Positions 2 through 21,331 of a stretch of DNA of 32,602 nt are shown in pieces. How positions within the stretch are numbered: the first letter of the stretch is position 1; every line of letters starts with the position of its first letter. Both the position numbers and the translations under genes were made by a program. The DNA lies in IMG/VR virus record IMGVR_UViG_2698536533_000006. The stretch is one strand, 5' to 3'. The notes beneath the pieces are model-generated. The model did no database searches and was not told the origin of the DNA. It was given only the letters and a program-made list of their open reading frames with translations. The stretch is from a virus. Its lineage: Duplodnaviria > Heunggongvirae > Uroviricota > Caudoviricetes.

Positions 2-199
2 CTATTACCTTCTTCAGAGAGCCCCCAGCTACTTCCTGTGACTCTCGATGCAGCTGCCGAACAGCCAGAATCGCTCGCAGAGGACCCGAAAACCCTCAGT
101 ATCAGCTGTGAGGTAACGTTCCGGCACGGGACGCTCCGCTTCAATGGCAATGTCAGCGAAAAGCTCCTGACTCTGCTGATACAGGAACTGAAGCGATGA
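2..199 (+). CDS. IS66-family TnpA (orf1), C-terminal fragment cut by window start
   Basis: Open frame from base 2 to TGA at 197-199 (tail ...VSEKLLTLLIQELKR); stop overlaps the next ATG in ATGA, the usual IS66 orf1/orf2 junction. Confidence 0.55.
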   Translation, partial: LLPSSESPQLLPVTLDAAAEQPESLAEDPKTLSISCEVTFRHGTLRFNGNVSEKLLTLLIQELKR

Positions 200-519
200 T
201 CCCGTTACCTTCCGGGATCAAAATTTGGCTGGTTGCCGGTATCACCGATATGAGAAATGGCTTCAACGGCCTGGCTGCGAAAGTACAGACGGCGCTGAAA
301 GACGATCCCATGTCCGGCCATGTTTTCATTTTCCGGGGCCGCAGCGGCAGTCAGGTTAAACTGCTGTGGTCCACCAGTGACGGACTGTGCCTCCTGACCA
401 AACGGCTGGAGCGTGGGCGCTTCGCCTGGCCGTCAGCCCGTGATGGCAAAGTGTTCCTTACACAGGCGCAGCTGGCGATGCTGCTGGAAGGTATCGACTG
501 GCGACATATAACCAGGTGA
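196..519 (+). CDS. tnpB: IS66-family accessory protein TnpB (orf2)
   Basis: 107 aa beginning MIPLPSGIKIWLVAGITDMRNGFNGLAAKVQ...FIFRGRSG...LLW, recognisable as IS66 orf2. No tnpC follows; the last codons may be phage-derived. Confidence 0.85.
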   Translation: MIPLPSGIKIWLVAGITDMRNGFNGLAAKVQTALKDDPMSGHVFIFRGRSGSQVKLLWSTSDGLCLLTKRLERGRFAWPSARDGKVFLTQAQLAMLLEGIDWRHITR

Positions 520-3683: not shown

Positions 3684-3988
3684 AATAAAAAAATAACCCG
3701 AGGGGTGACTCAGGTTATTTGAGGTTTCAGTCTCNNNNNNNNNNNNNNNNNNNNNNNNNNNNNNNNNNNNNNNNNNNNNNNNNNNNNNNNNNNNNNNNNN
3801 NNNNNNNNNNNNNNNNNNNNNNNNNNNNNNNNNNNNNNNNNNNNNNNNNNNNNNNNNNNNNNNNNNNNNNNNNNNNNNNNNNNNNNNNNNNNNNNNNNNN
3901 NNNNNNNNNNNNNNNNNNNNNNNNNNNNNNNNNNNNNNNNNNNNNNNNNNNNNNNNNNNNNNNNNNNNNNNNNNNNNNNNNNNNNNNN

Positions 3989-4705
3989 CAGTTTGTGGAA
4001 ACTCAGACAGTCCAGGAGCTGCGCGCACTGTTTCAGGCGGTTCGCCTGATGGGCTGTATTAACGTTATTGTGGGCGTACCGGGTGTGGGTAAAACGGCCA
4101 CTGCCCGTAATTACTGCCAGGAGCAACCAAACACCTGGATGATCACCCTGTCACCCGCGCACTCCAGCGTCACGGAGTGTCTGCTGGAGCTGGCCGATGC
4201 GCTGGGGATTGATTACACCCGCGCGAACAAAGGGGCATTATCCCGCGCCATCCGCCGTCGCCTGATGGGAACGCGTGGACTGGTGATTGTGGATGAGGCG
4301 GATCATCTTGGTATTGACGGTCTGGAGCAACTCCGGGCAATTCAGGACGCCACGGGGATCGGGATGGTGCTTATTGGTAACCCGCGCGGATTGTTTAAAG
4401 GTGGACGCCGCGCCTTTGATGATTTATCGCGCCTGTTCAGCCGTCTTGCCCGTACAAAACAACTTCGCAAGGCCAAAAAGGCGGATGTGCTGGCCATTGC
4501 CATGGCGTGGGGGATCAGTGGTGAGGCCGAGCTGGCCGTCATGCAGGCTATCGCTGAAAAGCCGGGAGCGTTACGCGTTCTGACACATACGCTTAACCAG
4601 GCGTGGCTCACCGCCAGCGGTGAAGGCGCGGCGCTGACAGAAAAACATATTAATGCGGCCTTTAAAGAGGTTTATACCAACCCTGAATTACTCTCACAGG
4701 TGTGA
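3989..4705 (+). CDS. MuB-like transposition ATPase, start hidden in N run 3735-3988
   Basis: Walker A motif GVPGVGKT and Walker B-like VIVDEADHL; directly downstream of the transposase. True start is somewhere between about 3720 and 3988. Confidence 0.85.
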   Translation, partial: QFVETQTVQELRALFQAVRLMGCINVIVGVPGVGKTATARNYCQEQPNTWMITLSPAHSSVTECLLELADALGIDYTRANKGALSRAIRRRLMGTRGLVIVDEADHLGIDGLEQLRAIQDATGIGMVLIGNPRGLFKGGRRAFDDLSRLFSRLARTKQLRKAKKADVLAIAMAWGISGEAELAVMQAIAEKPGALRVLTHTLNQAWLTASGEGAALTEKHINAAFKEVYTNPELLSQV

Positions 4706-4929
4706 TTATGGCGGTATTTAATATTCCTGATATTTACGGACGCTTTTACCTGGTTAATTTCGATAACGTGAAGGTGATTTCACTGGCCGAAAATAAAGAA
4801 TGTGGCGATTTACTTTTTGAATTTAATGACCGCACACGAATGGTGATATCTGCCGGACTTGATCGCGAAGGTGCGACAGAAGTTTACAGCGGAATATGCC
4901 GTTCTGTTGGTGCGAAACAAGTCAGCTAA
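4702..4929 (+). CDS. Small early protein (75 aa), in the position of Mu kil
   Basis: ATG overlaps the B stop (ATGA); no recognisable motif. The kil assignment is by position only. Confidence 0.45.
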   Translation: MIMAVFNIPDIYGRFYLVNFDNVKVISLAENKECGDLLFEFNDRTRMVISAGLDREGATEVYSGICRSVGAKQVS

Positions 4930-4941
4930 ATGAGGTGTTAT

Positions 4942-5196
4942 ATGAATATGCAATCCTGCGGTAACAAAATGAATTTATTCGACTCCCTGAACAGCGCGCG
5001 CCGTCTGACCGAACTTGCCGGTGCGGTACTGGAACGCAGTAAGCGCTATCCGCAACGTTTTGCACTGAAAACCACGCCGCCGGTAGGCAACGTGCAGGGA
5101 ACCGGTGAAATTGAAATCACCATACAGACCAACGGCCTGCGCCGCCGTGTGAAGGCCACCCGCATCAGCGGCTGCACGGTTTACTGGGAGGTGTGA
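4942..5196 (+). CDS. Small early hypothetical protein
   Basis: ORF with GAGGTG RBS 4 nt upstream of the ATG at 4942 (the in-frame ATG at 4930 is an alternative); translationally coupled to neighbours. Confidence 0.45.
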   Translation: MNMQSCGNKMNLFDSLNSARRLTELAGAVLERSKRYPQRFALKTTPPVGNVQGTGEIEITIQTNGLRRRVKATRISGCTVYWEV

Positions 5197-5197
5197 G

Positions 5198-5479
5198 GTG
5201 AAAAAAAATCTCATTGCATGGGCGTGGTCGAGTGGTCTTATTGAGTTTGGTTACGTCCTGCCGGAAGGTGCATTGCCGATAGTTGCCGGAAAGCCTGCCA
5301 CGGTACGGCATGTGATTGAGGTTATGGCGCGTCATGGACGTGATGAACAGGAGCAGTTACTGGTTCCGGGGATACCGGAAGCGGTGACGGAGGAAGAAGC
5401 CTTTAATGCCATGATTCGGTTCTGCCGTGAGGTTAGACGCCGGGTCAGTTATCCAAACAGAACGAGGACCAGAGGATGA
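5198..5479 (+). CDS. Small early hypothetical protein (93 aa, GTG start)
   Basis: GTG start 1 nt after the previous stop, preceded by GGGAGGTG. Confidence 0.45.
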   Translation: MKKNLIAWAWSSGLIEFGYVLPEGALPIVAGKPATVRHVIEVMARHGRDEQEQLLVPGIPEAVTEEEAFNAMIRFCREVRRRVSYPNRTRTRG

Positions 5480-5748
5480 GTAAAGTCGTACGCATTATTT
5501 TCGAATACAAGGAAGATGTTATCTGCAAAAACTCTGATGGCAGCACGCACAGAGGGGTAAGTCTGGATATACGTTCAACCGGAATAAAGAAGAAAGATAA
5601 TGGACCCGCCATGATTTTTGGGGTGGTTATGCTGGCAGAAAGCAGAAACTTCGCAGAGTTTGTGGCAATGAAAGCCAGTGCATTCATGAAAGACAGAGGC
5701 ATGGCTTCCGGGGTTATTAACGGTAATGAATTTAATCAACAGGGGTAA
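5476..5748 (+). CDS. Small early hypothetical protein, paralog A (MSKVVRIIFEY...)
   Basis: ATG overlaps the upstream stop; N-terminus and an AEF-x-A-x-x-AS-F segment are shared with the next gene. Confidence 0.5.
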   Translation: MSKVVRIIFEYKEDVICKNSDGSTHRGVSLDIRSTGIKKKDNGPAMIFGVVMLAESRNFAEFVAMKASAFMKDRGMASGVINGNEFNQQG

Positions 5749-5752
5749 TTCC

Positions 5753-6046
5753 ATGAGCAAAGTACGCGTTATTTTTGAATTTAATCATGTTTCGCATGAC
5801 GAAAAGTTGGCAGGCAATGACTGTGTTGAAGTGCATGAAAAGATTGGAGTGGATGTGAAAACAGAACGTGATACGGATAACAGGCCGACGTCACTCTGTG
5901 ACGTTTATGCAAGTATTCTCCAGTATCACAGTCCTGCAATTATTCAGTTTCTCTCAGCGGAATTTCAGGCATCTGCACAGTCTTTTGGAGCGGATGCCAT
6001 CATTAAACGCCACCGCGTGCATAAAGCATCAGGCACACTGCAATAA
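5753..6046 (+). CDS. Small early hypothetical protein, paralog B (MSKVRVIFEF...)
   Basis: ATG at 5753 with AGGGG RBS; N-terminal similarity to the 5476 gene. Confidence 0.5.
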   Translation: MSKVRVIFEFNHVSHDEKLAGNDCVEVHEKIGVDVKTERDTDNRPTSLCDVYASILQYHSPAIIQFLSAEFQASAQSFGADAIIKRHRVHKASGTLQ

Positions 6047-6057
6047 GGAAAAACAAA

Positions 6058-6588
6058 ATGGCTAAACGCGTTACAAAATTAAAGGCCGCAGCCGAGGCGG
6101 CACCGCAGACCCGGGAAGAAGTCAGCCGTGATATCCGCACCCTGGGAGATATTCAGCGAGAGGCGCTGCGCCTGGAAACGGCGATGAATGACGAAGTGGC
6201 AGAAATCACCGCCCGTTATACGCCGCAGATTGAAAATCTTAAAAAGCAAATCAAAGTGCTTTTTAAAGGGATTCAGGACTGGTGCAAAACCAACCGTGAT
6301 GAGCTGACGAACGGCGGCAAAACCAAAACAGCCAATCTGACCACCGGAACGGTGTCATGGCGGCTGGGAACGCCATCATGCAGCGTCAGCCGTGATGTGG
6401 AAGGTGTGATTGAAATGCTGCGCCGTATGGGGCTTGAGCGTTTCATCCGCACGAAAGAGGAAGTGAACAAGGAAGCCGTCCTGGCGGAGCCGGATGCTGT
6501 GAAAGGCATTGCCGGTATCAAGGTGAATAAAGGCGCTGAAAGTTTTTATGTCGAGCCTTTTGAACAGGACGCCGGACTGAATAAATAA
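6058..6588 (+). CDS. gam: Gam-like host nuclease inhibitor (Mu Gam family)
   Basis: 176 aa; extended similarity to Mu Gam (MAKRVTKLKAAAEAAPQTREEV...LGDIQREALRLETAMNDEVAEIT...NGGKTKTANLTTGTVSWR...FIRTKEEVNKEAVLAEP...EPFEQDAG). Confidence 0.9.
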   Translation: MAKRVTKLKAAAEAAPQTREEVSRDIRTLGDIQREALRLETAMNDEVAEITARYTPQIENLKKQIKVLFKGIQDWCKTNRDELTNGGKTKTANLTTGTVSWRLGTPSCSVSRDVEGVIEMLRRMGLERFIRTKEEVNKEAVLAEPDAVKGIAGIKVNKGAESFYVEPFEQDAGLNK

Positions 6589-6733
6589 CACCGCATTAAT
6601 CAATTAAATATCACTTCATTTTAATTATGGCGCTCGCGTCAGGGGACTGCTTGCGCCTGAAAACAGAAAATAAGGGTTAAGAAATATGAAATACGTTTAT
6701 ATCGTCATTAATAATGTGGTGGGGAAATAAATC

Positions 6734-6914
6734 ATGATTGATGCAAAAGTGCTTGAAGGGGTTAAAAACTGGCTGTGTATTTATGGCCGCCTGACCTGCG
6801 GTGTACTGGCTGAAAAAATGAATATGCCGCCATCCTCCATGGTTTATTTTCTGCGTGATGCGGTTGATGCAGGCGTGCTGACGGAATGTAACGGTTTTTA
6901 TGATATTCCGCGTC
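6734..6914 (+). CDS. Hypothetical protein, N-terminal part (runs into N run 6915-7209)
   Basis: ORF beginning MIDAKVLEGVKNWL... with RBS GGTGGGGAAA; the C-terminus is not visible. Confidence 0.4.
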
Positions 6915-7238
6915 NNNNNNNNNNNNNNNNNNNNNNNNNNNNNNNNNNNNNNNNNNNNNNNNNNNNNNNNNNNNNNNNNNNNNNNNNNNNNNNNNNNNNN
7001 NNNNNNNNNNNNNNNNNNNNNNNNNNNNNNNNNNNNNNNNNNNNNNNNNNNNNNNNNNNNNNNNNNNNNNNNNNNNNNNNNNNNNNNNNNNNNNNNNNNN
7101 NNNNNNNNNNNNNNNNNNNNNNNNNNNNNNNNNNNNNNNNNNNNNNNNNNNNNNNNNNNNNNNNNNNNNNNNNNNNNNNNNNNNNNNNNNNNNNNNNNNN
7201 NNNNNNNNNCTGCCGGGATATCTGCGGAGGTGGCGTAA

Positions 7239-7753
7239 TGTTCTTTAAAACATCAAACCCTTCCGCGCTGGCTGCGTGGCAAAAATACCAGCAGGACTGC
7301 CAGAAAGTTAAGGATGAGGCAAAACGCCTTGAGGCCGTGCTGAATGTTGCGTGCCGGTCGGTATTTGTATCCGGTATCAGTGGATTTTACTTTAAGGGAC
7401 TGCGTTTTACGGAGGACAAATATCCTTTTCATCGCGACTTATGGCGAAAACCGACTGCGTCGAATGGCTGGAGCTGCACACCGCGCACATCACGTATCCC
7501 TAAAACCCTGCGTGTTGCCTCTGATGAACTGAACAGTCTGTGGCGTGAATATTCGCCCGTCACGTATGCCAGAACCGATGCGCTGTTGTTCTGGTTGGGT
7601 ATTGATTTCTCGGCAATCCTGTTTGGCCCTGTGAAGTGGTTCTGCGTTGACGATGTGATTTACCTTCAGTGCGGCGTAAAACCCGCAAAACAGAAAATGA
7701 CCGAAATACTGTCTGATGAGTTTTATGCTGCTGAAAAGCGAGTCAGGGGGTGA
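7239..7753 (+). CDS. Hypothetical early protein (171 aa)
   Basis: ATG at 7239 preceded by GGAGGTGG; an upstream frame ends with TAA at 7236-7238 (TAATG coupling). Confidence 0.5.
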
Positions 7754-7756
7754 TGC

Positions 7757-8308
7757 ATGATGAAATTACAACCCATGGGACTAAAAGGTCGCGCCCCCGC
7801 TCATGTCCGTCCGTGGACACCTGAAGAAGATGCGCTGCTGATTGCGCTTTATTCATCCACCCCGGTTAAGGATATTGCTGCCAGAATAAAAAGAACTGTC
7901 TGGGCTGTATATAACCGGACTGGTGTATTGCGCAGTTCATACCCGGAGTTACTGAAATATAAACACCCAAGATTTACACCTGATGAAGATAAGTTTATTC
8001 GAAAAAATGCCAGAACAATGACCTGCCAGCAAATGGGAGAATATCTCGGACGTAATAAAGATTCTGTCAGATGTCGGGCAGGAATGATTGGTGCTGGATT
8101 AACAAAGTGCGGAGAGTTACGCCCCGGCACGCGCATATCTGATGATGATGTACGTCTTATACGTGAGCTGCGTGATTCCGATTACCCACGCCGTCTGTCA
8201 TTCCGGGAAATTGGCGAAAAGTTTGGAATATCTGAACATTCTGCTCACGCAGTTTATTACCGTCGCCGGACTGCCGAGGACGCTGTATTACGGGAGTTAA
8301 CGCCATGA
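7757..8308 (+). CDS. Hypothetical DNA-binding protein with three internal HTH-like repeats
   Basis: 183 aa with three similar segments: WTPEEDALLIALY..., FTPDEDKFIRKNA..., ISDDDVRLIRELR...; lower GC than the phage average. Confidence 0.5.
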   Translation: MMKLQPMGLKGRAPAHVRPWTPEEDALLIALYSSTPVKDIAARIKRTVWAVYNRTGVLRSSYPELLKYKHPRFTPDEDKFIRKNARTMTCQQMGEYLGRNKDSVRCRAGMIGAGLTKCGELRPGTRISDDDVRLIRELRDSDYPRRLSFREIGEKFGISEHSAHAVYYRRRTAEDAVLRELTP

Positions 8309-16504: not shown

Positions 16505-17832
16505 TTTAGGTTATGCCGCCACGCTTCCCTCAAAAGAGACGGTGGCATACTTCCGCGCCAAAGGGGCGCATATCAGCTGGAACTGGTTCGAAACAGACGC
16601 GGATGTTCATGCCCGCTCATTCACGGCAGCAAAAACGGCACGGCTGGATGTGGTAACCACATTACAGGCCGAAGTGCAGCGGGCCATTGATGAGGGGATT
16701 TCACAGAAAGAATTTATCCGCACACTGACGCCACGCCTGCAAAAGCTGGGATGGTGGGGAAAGCAGATTGTGGTGGACAGCGACGGTAACGCGGAAGAAG
16801 TGCAGCAGGGCAGTCCCCGTCGTCTGGCGCTGATTTACAACGTGAACACCCGTGTGGCTTACAATGCCGGGCGTTACACGCAGATGATGAACAACACGGA
16901 CACGCATCCGTTCTGGCAGTATGTGGCGGTCATGGACAGCCGTACCCGCCNNNNNNNNNNNNNNNNNNNNNNNNNNNNNNNNNNNNNNNNNNNNNNNNNN
17001 NNNNNNNNNNNNNNNNNNNNNNNNNNNNNNNNNNNNNNNNNNNNNNNNNNNNNNNNNNNNNNNNNNNNNNNNNNNNNNNNNNNNNNNNNNNNNNNNNNNN
17101 NNNNNNNNNNNNNNNNNNNNNNNNNNNNNNNNNNNNNNNNNNNNNNNNNNNNNNNNNNNNNNNNNNNNNNNNNNNNNNNNNNNNNNNNNNNNNNNNNNNN
17201 NNNNNGGCGCCAGAACCATGACACCGGATGTGGGCTGGTCATATAACCCCGGCTCGGCAGCGTTCGGCACAGACCAGGCGCTGATCCGCAAACTGATCGA
17301 GGTGAAAAGCCCGGCGTTACGGGAAATGGTGGTTCAGGAGATGAACAACAGCCCGGAGCGGCAGCTGGCGTTCCGCATCTGGGCAAAAAACATCATGCAG
17401 ACCCGGCGAGGTGGTAACGATATCCGCACGCTGGGCTTTATGACTGAAAGCATTGCGCAGGCAGTGGAAAGCCGGACGGGAACGCCACCGGCCCGCCTGC
17501 TGGCGATGAGCGGTAAAAATGTGCTCCATGCGGACAGTGTGAAACATCAGAATGACGGCATCGCTCTGACGCCGGAGGACTTCGGGCGCTTACCGGCAAT
17601 GCTGGCAAGGCCAAAAGCGGTACTGTGGGACAAACGGCACAACAATCTGATGTATATCGTGGAAAATCAGGATGGCAGTGTGCAGATTGCCGTTAATGCA
17701 CCGTACAGTCTGAAACGTCAGCCCGACAAACTGGATGTGATTGTGAATGCTTACCGGGTTATCAATATGGATAAGCTGAAATCGGATATCCGGGGCGGAA
17801 TGCTTGAGGTGCTGGAAGGACAAATTGATTAA
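16488..17832 (+). CDS. Head morphogenesis protein (Mu F / gp30-like), interrupted by N run 16951-17205
   Basis: Open frames on both sides of the gap with combined size near Mu gp30. Frame continuity across the gap cannot be verified. Confidence 0.6.
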
Positions 17833-21058: not shown

Positions 21059-21331
21059 NNNNNNNNNNNNNNNNNNNNNNNNNNNNNNNNNNNNNNNNNN
21101 NNNNNNNNNNNNNNNNNNNNNNNNNNNNNNNNNNNNNNNNNNNNNNNNNNNNNNNNNNNNNNNNNNNNNNNNNNNNNNNNNNNNNNNNNNNNNNNNNNNN
21201 NNNNNNNNNNNNNNNNNNNNNNNNNNNNNNNNNNNNNNNNNNNNNNNNNNNNNNNNNNNNNNNNNNNNNNNNNNNNNNNNNNNNNNNNNNNNNNNNNNNN
21301 NNNNNNNNNNNNNNNNNNNNNNNNNNNNNNN

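Follow-up and report, generated by a model that had tools for sequence, protein, structure and literature searches.

What does an Escherichia coli Mu-like prophage carry between its B gene and gam, and what might the genes found there do? The GenBank record of Mu lists five genes in this interval, kil, E5, E6, E7 and E8, and the functions of the 'semi-essential' early region have been described as 'largely unknown' (PMC3820752). We analysed a stretch of 32,602 nucleotides (nt) from the IMG/VR virus record IMGVR_UViG_2698536533_000006, referred to here as the window. It contains an E. coli Mu-like prophage whose B-to-gam interval, 1.35 kb in length, is filled by five small + strand genes encoding proteins of 73-97 amino acids (aa), which we number 1 to 5 from the B side. 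An earlier reading, made from the letters of the DNA alone and called here the sequence-only reading, had placed this block in the slot where Mu has kil. That placement is borne out, since the block runs from B to gam as kil and E5-E8 do in Mu. The explanation that best accounts for our results, and one that we regard as probable, is that the interval holds a mosaic early cassette of small accessory proteins, with a Kil homologue (gene 2) and two copies of the E6/Gnarl2 family (genes 4 and 5).

Gene 2 and the tandem pair of genes 4 and 5

Gene 2 (4942..5196, + strand, 84 aa) matched PHROG 2679, 'Kil', with an E value of 6.6e-46, and PHROG 2743, the family of Mu Kil, with an E value of 9e-4; in the reciprocal direction, Mu Kil matched PHROG 2679 at E 9e-5. 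BLASTP aligned gene 2 and Mu Kil at 33% identity over the C-terminal 39 aa (E 1e-4; z = 8.6 against shuffled sequences), and a protein identical to gene 2, WP_001057199.1, has been named 'Kil protein family' by RefSeq in one genome. These comparisons make gene 2 a homologue of Kil; the sequence-only reading, which could name a motif in none of the five products, was wrong for this one. The two proteins are of similar size (84 vs 74 aa), have an isoelectric point (pI) of ~10, are encoded in the B-gam interval and have in common a C-terminal motif, A-x-R-[IL]-x-G-C-x-[VI]-x-W. They differ in that gene 2 occupies the second place after B and not the first, and in that the BLAST alignment is confined to those C-terminal ~39 residues. 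Mu kil kills the host and makes E. coli spherical on expression (PMC3961180), and because the cells become spherical the PHROG wording 'septation inhibition' is imprecise for the Kil family.

Gene 4 (5476..5748, + strand, 90 aa) and gene 5 (5753..6046, + strand, 97 aa) are the upstream and downstream members of a tandem pair, for which the sequence-only reading had proposed local duplication and divergence on the strength of a similar N-terminus and an internal AEF...AS.F segment. Pairwise alignment established that the two are significantly similar. BLASTP gave 22% identity over 76 aa (E 6e-4), and the Smith-Waterman score was 50 (z = 6.1), a value equalled by 0 of 2000 shuffles, whose mean was 23.9 (sd 4.3). 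When the family profiles were compared with hhalign, the probability was 84-86% and the E values ranged from 5e-6 to 7.5e-6. The internal segment carries no weight as evidence, since both strings exist but fall out of register in the BLAST, MAFFT and hhalign alignments.

Most of the signal is N-terminal, lying within the first ~35-45 residues, and this counts against the family assignment that we propose below for gene 4. The confident hhalign stretch covers residues 1-34/45, and z drops from 6.1 to 2.1 when the first 10-11 residues are removed. A repeat search showed that the common N-terminus, MSKV(V)R(I/V)IFE(Y/F), is underlain by a 19-nt direct repeat on the + strand, 89% identical between copy 1 at 5488-5506 (gene 4 codons 5-10) and copy 2 at 5762-5780 (gene 5 codons 4-10). 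PHROGs also puts the genes in separate families, gene 4 matching PHROG 4107 only and gene 5 matching PHROG 2230 at E 2e-38. These features, with the misregister of the AEF strings, are what would be seen if genes 4 and 5 had in common only an N-terminal module of ~11-35 residues, the other two thirds being unrelated; gene conversion between the 19-nt repeats, a constraint on translation initiation or coupling, or recombination at a cassette boundary might maintain the module. We consider this explanation quite unlikely. The remainder of the two proteins still scores above shuffles (p = 0.045), a global hhalign alignment extends over 79 columns at E 3e-5, and gene 4 aligns over 70 columns (E 3e-4) with a profile that combines Mu gp7 and the bridge proteins described below. 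Lengths are similar, and the AlphaFold2 (AF2) models of both proteins have the same order of elements. The alleles of gene 5 bear on the same point. In E. coli they fall into two ancient classes that are ~58-60% identical as protein, with a synonymous divergence (dS) of ~0.9-1.2 and a ratio of nonsynonymous to synonymous divergence (dN/dS) of ~0.3. The N-terminal peptide is invariant between the classes despite heavy divergence at synonymous sites in codons 1-33 (proportion of synonymous differences, pS, 0.61), which points to selection on the protein rather than to recent conversion.

Of the duplication proposed for genes 4 and 5, the homology stands and a recent date does not, given 22% identity. 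The distance between the two genes is about that between gene 5 and its Kluyvera/Enterobacteriaceae homologues (25% identity). An old duplication and the joining by unequal recombination of two diverged alleles of one family fit the data equally well.

One E. coli variant of the pair, P0030 (67 aa), consists of gene 4 residues 1-49 fused in frame to gene 5 residues 80-97 (...IFG followed by ADA...). The junction lies at a common 'FG' (TTTGG microhomology) and joins ~5476-5622 to ~5990-6046, so the tandem pair can collapse to one hybrid open reading frame (ORF). We rejected homologous exchange between genes 4 and 5 as the origin of P0030, since the two parts do not join in register and the junction has the look of a deletion at the microhomology.

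The E6 product of Mu, gp7 (Mup07, NP_050611), is the orf63/gnarl2 protein of Silas et al. (Nat Commun 2025, PMC12373910; bioRxiv 10.1101/2023.04.06.535777). When it was expressed, O-antigen bands were downshifted and T5 infection was strongly raised in ECOR1 and ECOR22, and Gnarl2 was conditionally lethal in some hosts (PMC12373910). The connection between this protein and the tandem pair runs through small ORFs located between kil and gam in other Mu-like elements. A hidden Markov model (HMM) of gene 5 picked up two of these, one in Kluyvera (L008, 88 aa) and one in Enterobacteriaceae (L006, 85 aa). Both of these bridge proteins start with MAKVIIE, as does Mu gp7, and resemble gene 5 in their mid-part. 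They match gene 5's PHROG 2230 end to end (E 2e-15 and 4e-13), and end-to-end matches to the same family were obtained from the gp7 side with Mu gp7 (E 0.009) and with a 72%-identical gp7 variant (E 4e-4). In hhalign, the bridge proteins aligned with gene 5 at a probability of 91% (E 1e-6) and the gp7 family with the bridge proteins at 72% (E 3e-5). A combined bridge and gp7 profile gave 90% (E 1.9e-6) with gene 5 and 38% (E 3e-4 over those 70 columns) with gene 4, and a combined profile of gene 5, the bridge proteins and gene 4 gave 87% with gp7 (E 4.5e-6, 74 columns). The order of genes agrees as well: an early-operon position between kil and gam is found here, in Mu, in Kluyvera L008 and in Enterobacteriaceae L006.

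The predicted structures are compatible with this connection. The published AF2 model of Mu gp7 (supplement; predicted local distance difference test score, pLDDT, 67-97 over residues 1-67) has a strand at 1-14, a turn, a strand at 19-33 and a helix at 35-67+ (PMC12373910). Our models of genes 4 and 5 were built on shallow alignments and are of low confidence (pLDDT only 48 and 57, respectively). They place strands at 6-18 and 24-35 and a helix at 54-73 in gene 4, and strands at 4-19 and 25-39 and helices at 48-57 and 61-77 in gene 5, in the same order, hairpin and then helix, as in gp7. The three proteins are alike in length (87 aa for gp7 vs 90 and 97 aa), in their kil-gam location within a Mu-type early operon and in an N-terminal strand of the form M-[AS]-K-V-x-[IV]-I-x-E. 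In the models, which are of low confidence for genes 4 and 5, a long beta-hairpin precedes a long helix in all three. They differ in that pairwise identity is ~20% or less, that this prophage has two diverged tandem copies and Mu a single E6, that gene 5 has a C-terminal extension of ~10 residues relative to gp7, and that gene 4 is basic and gp7 acidic. Mu E6 is the only one of the three with a known O-antigen and T5 phenotype.

Several considerations weigh against placing genes 4 and 5 in the gp7 family. Direct comparison of the gp7 family with gene 5 (E 0.063, probability 1%) or with gene 4 (E 0.013, probability 3%) was not significant. The link is transitive, the merged profiles presuppose the intermediate steps, and all profiles are shallow, with an effective number of sequences (Neff) of about 1.1-1.7. 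Unrelated proteins may also arrive at a topology as simple as a hairpin plus helix, and Foldseek searches with the gene 5 model against BFVD and PDB returned nothing at E <= 0.001. None of genes 1-5 is among the proteins in the Silas et al. screen, and affinity purification-mass spectrometry on Gnarl2 gave no clear pattern for its target (PMC12373910). Moreover, at <=20% identity function need not be conserved. Word-indexed protein searches and tblastn against phages with genes 4 and 5 found only close E. coli relatives, every named homologue of the two genes coming from this species, and a scan of viral contigs for further 'MAKVIIE' bridge proteins found one identical copy only. In our assessment, gene 5 is likely to belong to the E6/Gnarl2 family, and gene 4, with less assurance, probably does so too. 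Conservation of the O-antigen phenotype of Mu E6 in genes 4 and 5, which we consider by analogy, is possible and rather doubtful.

Operon structure and mosaicism of the B-gam interval

The sequence-only reading described five coupled ORFs of 75-97 aa. All five are real, and RefSeq calls the same coding sequences (CDSs) in identical DNA, but two starts needed revision. RefSeq starts gene 1 (4708..4929, + strand, 73 aa) at ATG 4708 instead of GTG 4702, and gene 2 at ATG 4942, preceded by a GAGGTG Shine-Dalgarno sequence, instead of ATG 4930. The best-supported starts are 4708 and 4942, with those of genes 3-5 as originally given. From B to gam the intergenic gaps are 2, 12, 1, -4, 4 and 11 nt, with a Shine-Dalgarno-like motif at each start, and the start of gene 4 overlaps the stop of gene 3 (ATGA). 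A simple scan found no promoter-like sites on the + strand within the block and a count of terminator-like sites not above that of shuffled sequence, and an Rfam scan of 4000-7000 gave sub-threshold noise only.

In the annotated frame, dN/dS computed from 6-22 distinct alleles per gene was 0.23, 0.11, 0.13, 0.29 and 0.45 for genes 1-5 and 0.09 for gam; in shifted frames it was about 0.7-4.4. The low values in the annotated frame exclude spurious ORFs, and the five genes are therefore real and protein-coding. Lack of conservation in related prophages had been named as something that could overturn the sequence-only reading, and we found instead that the ORFs are kept under purifying selection. 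Genes 4 and 5 evolve faster than gam. None of the five products contains a hydrophobic span, and solubility is predicted for all of them. With pI values of 4.9, 10.3, 9.5, 9.3 and 6.3 for genes 1-5, and a net charge that never falls below -2.5, they do not show the strong acidity of DNA-mimic anti-restriction proteins of the Ocr/ArdA type. Sequence searches of Pfam, NCBIfam, PADLOC and PDB with all five proteins gave no matches.

The block is bounded upstream by a MuB-like AAA+ ATPase gene (3719..4705, + strand, with 3735-3988 masked as N), annotated 'AAA family ATPase' by RefSeq in identical DNA. Downstream lies the gene for Gam, a Ku-like DNA-end-binding protein (6058..6588, + strand), which is 57% identical to Mu Gam (E 2e-71) and is called 'host-nuclease inhibitor Gam family protein' by RefSeq. 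A 1.55 kb segment around the block is 100% identical to chromosomal prophages in several E. coli strains, where the annotated order is repressor, helix-turn-helix protein (Ner-like), Mu transposase (MuA), AAA family ATPase, five hypothetical proteins, Gam, Mor and lysozyme. Among 5,426 complete E. coli genomes the block is present in 233, mostly at 95-99% identity and with <=4 copies per genome, and it was also found in two Mu-like elements inserted in Shiga toxin (Stx) phages.

The composition of the interval is not fixed. We recruited 41 IMG/VR loci with gene 5, and 38 of these were informative for layout. The order 1-2-3-4-5 is present in 25 of the 38; seven have gene 1, a Mu-gp8-like gene and then genes 2, 4 and 5; three have 1-2-4-5; and the layouts 1-4-5, 1-gp8-like-4-5 and 1-2-5 occur at one locus each. 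Gene 3 is missing from 13 of the 38. Given the layouts that lack them, the prophage can dispense with gene 3 and occasionally with gene 4 or kil. Exchange also reaches into the genes: L062 carries a divergent gene 5 allele (~70% DNA identity), with a backbone whose identity is 100% over B to gene 3 inclusive and 93-99% over gam, and intragenic recombinants of gene 5 exist (P0048). In other genera the B-gam interval measures 0.4-1.8 kb and holds 1-5 small ORFs, among which only Kil, an E6-like gene, Mu E5 and gene 3 recur.

The gp8-like gene itself encodes 140 aa, resembles Mu gp8 (E7) and lies between gene 1 and kil, with no gene 3, in about one fifth of related prophages. Examples are L005 (1843-2265), L039, L052, L057, L059, L060, L061 and L066. 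This gene and gene 3 look like alternative cassettes.

Variation of this kind bears on whether the small genes serve the phage itself, in transposition, replication or regulation, with no manipulation of the host. Classical Mu genetics mapped poorly defined functions, arm, cim and lig, to the semi-essential region; the genes here follow immediately after A and B within one operon, and the Mu GenBank record gives kil as 'also known as cim for control of immunity'. The description of what this region does as 'largely unknown' (PMC3820752) leaves room for such a role. We nonetheless judge it very improbable. Interval content varies among Mu-like phages in which A, B and Gam are conserved, genes 3, 4 and kil are each missing from some otherwise intact layouts, no DNA-binding or enzymatic domain was detected in genes 1-5, and Mu E6 expressed alone has a host-directed phenotype (PMC12373910).

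Gene 1 is found in 35/35 IMG/VR loci that reach its position, directly after B in every layout seen. Its product is acidic (pI 4.9) and falls in PHROG 3375, a family of unknown function (E 1e-46), and tblastn against phages found relatives only in the two Mu-like elements of E. coli inserted in Stx phages. We class gene 1 as an orphan specific to its lineage. It has an exact 14-nt repeat, TTTTTGAATTTAAT, in common with gene 5 (4814-4827 in gene 1, 5772-5785 in gene 5), which encodes (L)FEFN at residues 36-40 of the former and 7-11 of the latter. In 1.5 kb of random sequence chance would produce about 0.005 matches of this kind, but the sequence is AT-rich. We found no wider similarity between genes 1 and 5 beyond this repeat. 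A weak similarity of gene 1 to Mu gp8 (z = 2.8) was also noted, and at the protein level neither a relationship to gene 5 nor one to gp8 was supported.

Elsewhere in the window, the left edge carries an IS66-family TnpB (Orf2) gene at 196-519 (+ strand; Pfam PF05717, E 1e-37; also 38-199), directly before the repressor at 753-1298. An identical prophage in strain 600029 is flanked on its left by a truncated sgrR-family gene, and thus lies in a different context from this copy. Downstream of gp11/gp12 homologues, 7757-8308 encodes a SANT/Myb-like relative of Mu gp9 (E8), 183 aa long; in Mu the gp9 gene sits between B and gam, and compared with Mu the order of the early region is rearranged here. 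Five runs of N (128-295 nt; 1330-1457, 3735-3988, 6915-7209, 16951-17205 and 21059-21331) mask two stretches of the late region and parts of MuB, of the Ner-like region and of the junction between gp11 and gp12, and listed ORFs that span them, such as 6734-7753, are artefactual fusions.

Gene 3 and the 'host nuclease inhibitor' label

Gene 3 (5198..5479, + strand, 93 aa, GTG start) matches PHROG 1518, 'host nuclease inhibitor', at E 4e-43, and is 43-50% identical over ~75-83 residues to proteins of Pseudomonas casadabanvirus, Burkholderia and Stenotrophomonas phages, many of them so named. A word-indexed protein search with gene 3 found close relatives only, whereas an exhaustive HMMER search yielded a family of 546 clusters at 50% identity (E <= 1e-3), most members being 80-110 aa and some duplicated or extended. 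The family consensus is roughly [AY]CWASGLIEFG..VPEGALPIA.G...VR......ARHA....LLVPG[VI]PEA, and one member (P0072) contains two copies in tandem. We found no Pfam or NCBIfam model for the family and no Pfam domain in the extensions of long members.

The label does not reflect similarity to Gam. Gene 3 has no Pfam or NCBIfam match to Gam, and BLAST against the Gam of this prophage or of Mu gave nothing better than E ~0.5. In D3112 (AY394005, 4476-5276) the match to gene 3 lies inside a 266-aa 'gam' CDS and covers residues 176-248 only. DMS3 and JBD69 each encode Gam and the gene 3 homologue in two distinct genes. A single base sets D3112 apart from DMS3 (CCCTG-ACACC vs CCCTGAACACC; DMS3 975-1776 compared), and this indel throws the normal Gam C-terminus out of frame, so that the D3112 CDS reads on into the next gene. 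We considered a 'Rosetta-stone' fusion of Gam and gene 3 in D3112 and rejected it, since the genes are separate in DMS3 and JBD69 and the 1-nt indel explains the fusion. Because that indel fuses gam to the gene 3 homologue, the family label appears to be an artefact, and the name 'host nuclease inhibitor' on PHROG 1518 and many NCBI entries has most probably spread from the fused D3112 record.

The homologue does often adjoin gam, lying upstream of it in Enterobacteriaceae L006 and downstream in L017, DMS3 and JBD69; it is also present in a non-Mu phage with no annotated gam close by. Compared with DMS3-12, JBD69 gp14 and BcepMigl gp54, gene 3 has the same length (~90 aa) and the 43-50% identity given above, and differs from the DMS3 and JBD69 homologues in lying two genes upstream of gam and not directly downstream. 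A family of at least 546 clusters thus carries a functional name that apparently goes back to an indel of one base in a single phage record of 2004, which matters for annotation.

Candidate roles of the block

Taken as a whole, the region is an ordinary Mu-type semi-essential early region that behaves as expected and holds no categorically new biology. What is new is the probable placement of two 'hypothetical' genes in the E6/Gnarl2 family, their tandem state and the origin of the gene 3 family mislabel. Every biochemical function in this prophage is one that we infer, and a host-interaction role for the genes of the block is, by analogy, reasonable. At induction or infection, five small, soluble, non-enzymatic proteins would be made by translational coupling from the early transcript, and proteins of this size would most likely act by binding host proteins. 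Tip (D3112 gp05) and Aqs1 (DMS3) are small early proteins of Pseudomonas Mu-like phages that bind the host proteins PilB and LasR. They offer a 'works like' analogy only, as very small products of early operons with another host and other targets; no relationship in sequence to the genes here was detected, and no search aimed at one was made. The Kil-family product of gene 2 would perturb the maintenance of cell shape. Genes 4 and 5, by analogy with Gnarl2, may perturb the synthesis of lipopolysaccharide (LPS) and O-antigen or another pathway of the host envelope, and the two may differ in their targets or in the host strains on which they act. Mu-type phages use LPS for adsorption, and a change in LPS could therefore prevent superinfection or re-adsorption to debris. 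Silas et al. suggest for the gnarl genes that an envelope change could block superinfection or the re-adsorption of progeny to debris (PMC12373910), and the same could apply here.

Anti-defence functions were among those raised in the sequence-only reading. The alternative that the tandem pair, perhaps together with genes 1 and 3, inhibits an intracellular defence such as restriction-modification, CBASS or Gabija, and does not modify the envelope or O-antigen, strikes us as unlikely. Under this alternative, resemblance to E6 says nothing about the target, and the affinity purification of Gnarl2 showed no clear pattern. The genes concerned are small, early and fast-evolving (dN/dS 0.29-0.45 vs 0.09 for gam), two deep allele classes of gene 5 have been swapped within a near-identical backbone, and the neighbouring gam encodes a RecBCD antagonist that interacts with defence systems. 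Set against these points, there is no match to a known anti-defence family, Pfam or PADLOC model; with pI 9.3 and 6.3, the products of genes 4 and 5 lack the strong acidity of DNA mimics; the sole characterised relative acts on the O-antigen barrier; and with gene-wide dN/dS < 1, positive selection is not demonstrated.

Returning to the envelope as the candidate site of action of an E6/Gnarl2-type pair, the presence of two copies and two allele classes hints at a diversification of targets, with gene-wide dN/dS below 1. A more elaborate version, which we regard as improbable, is that genes 4 and 5 form a diversifying Gnarl-type module in which each product binds a different factor of envelope or O-antigen biosynthesis, or the two form a heterodimer, and in which the two deep allele classes of gene 5, exchanged by recombination between prophages that are otherwise nearly identical, are matched to the variable O-antigen chemistry of E. 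coli hosts. If that were true, the B-gam cassette would be a polymorphic 'serotype-matching' system, used for superinfection exclusion or against re-adsorption to lysed cells.

Genes of this block are annotated as hypothetical in hundreds of E. coli genomes, including O157:H7. The E6/Gnarl2 link makes genes 4 and 5 candidates with a concrete and cheap assay, namely LPS ladders and plating of T5 and T4. If the link is true, Gnarl2 grows from one Mu gene to a divergent and sometimes duplicated family with a fixed position in enterobacterial Mu-like prophages, and a larger Gnarl2 family would help to find its host target.

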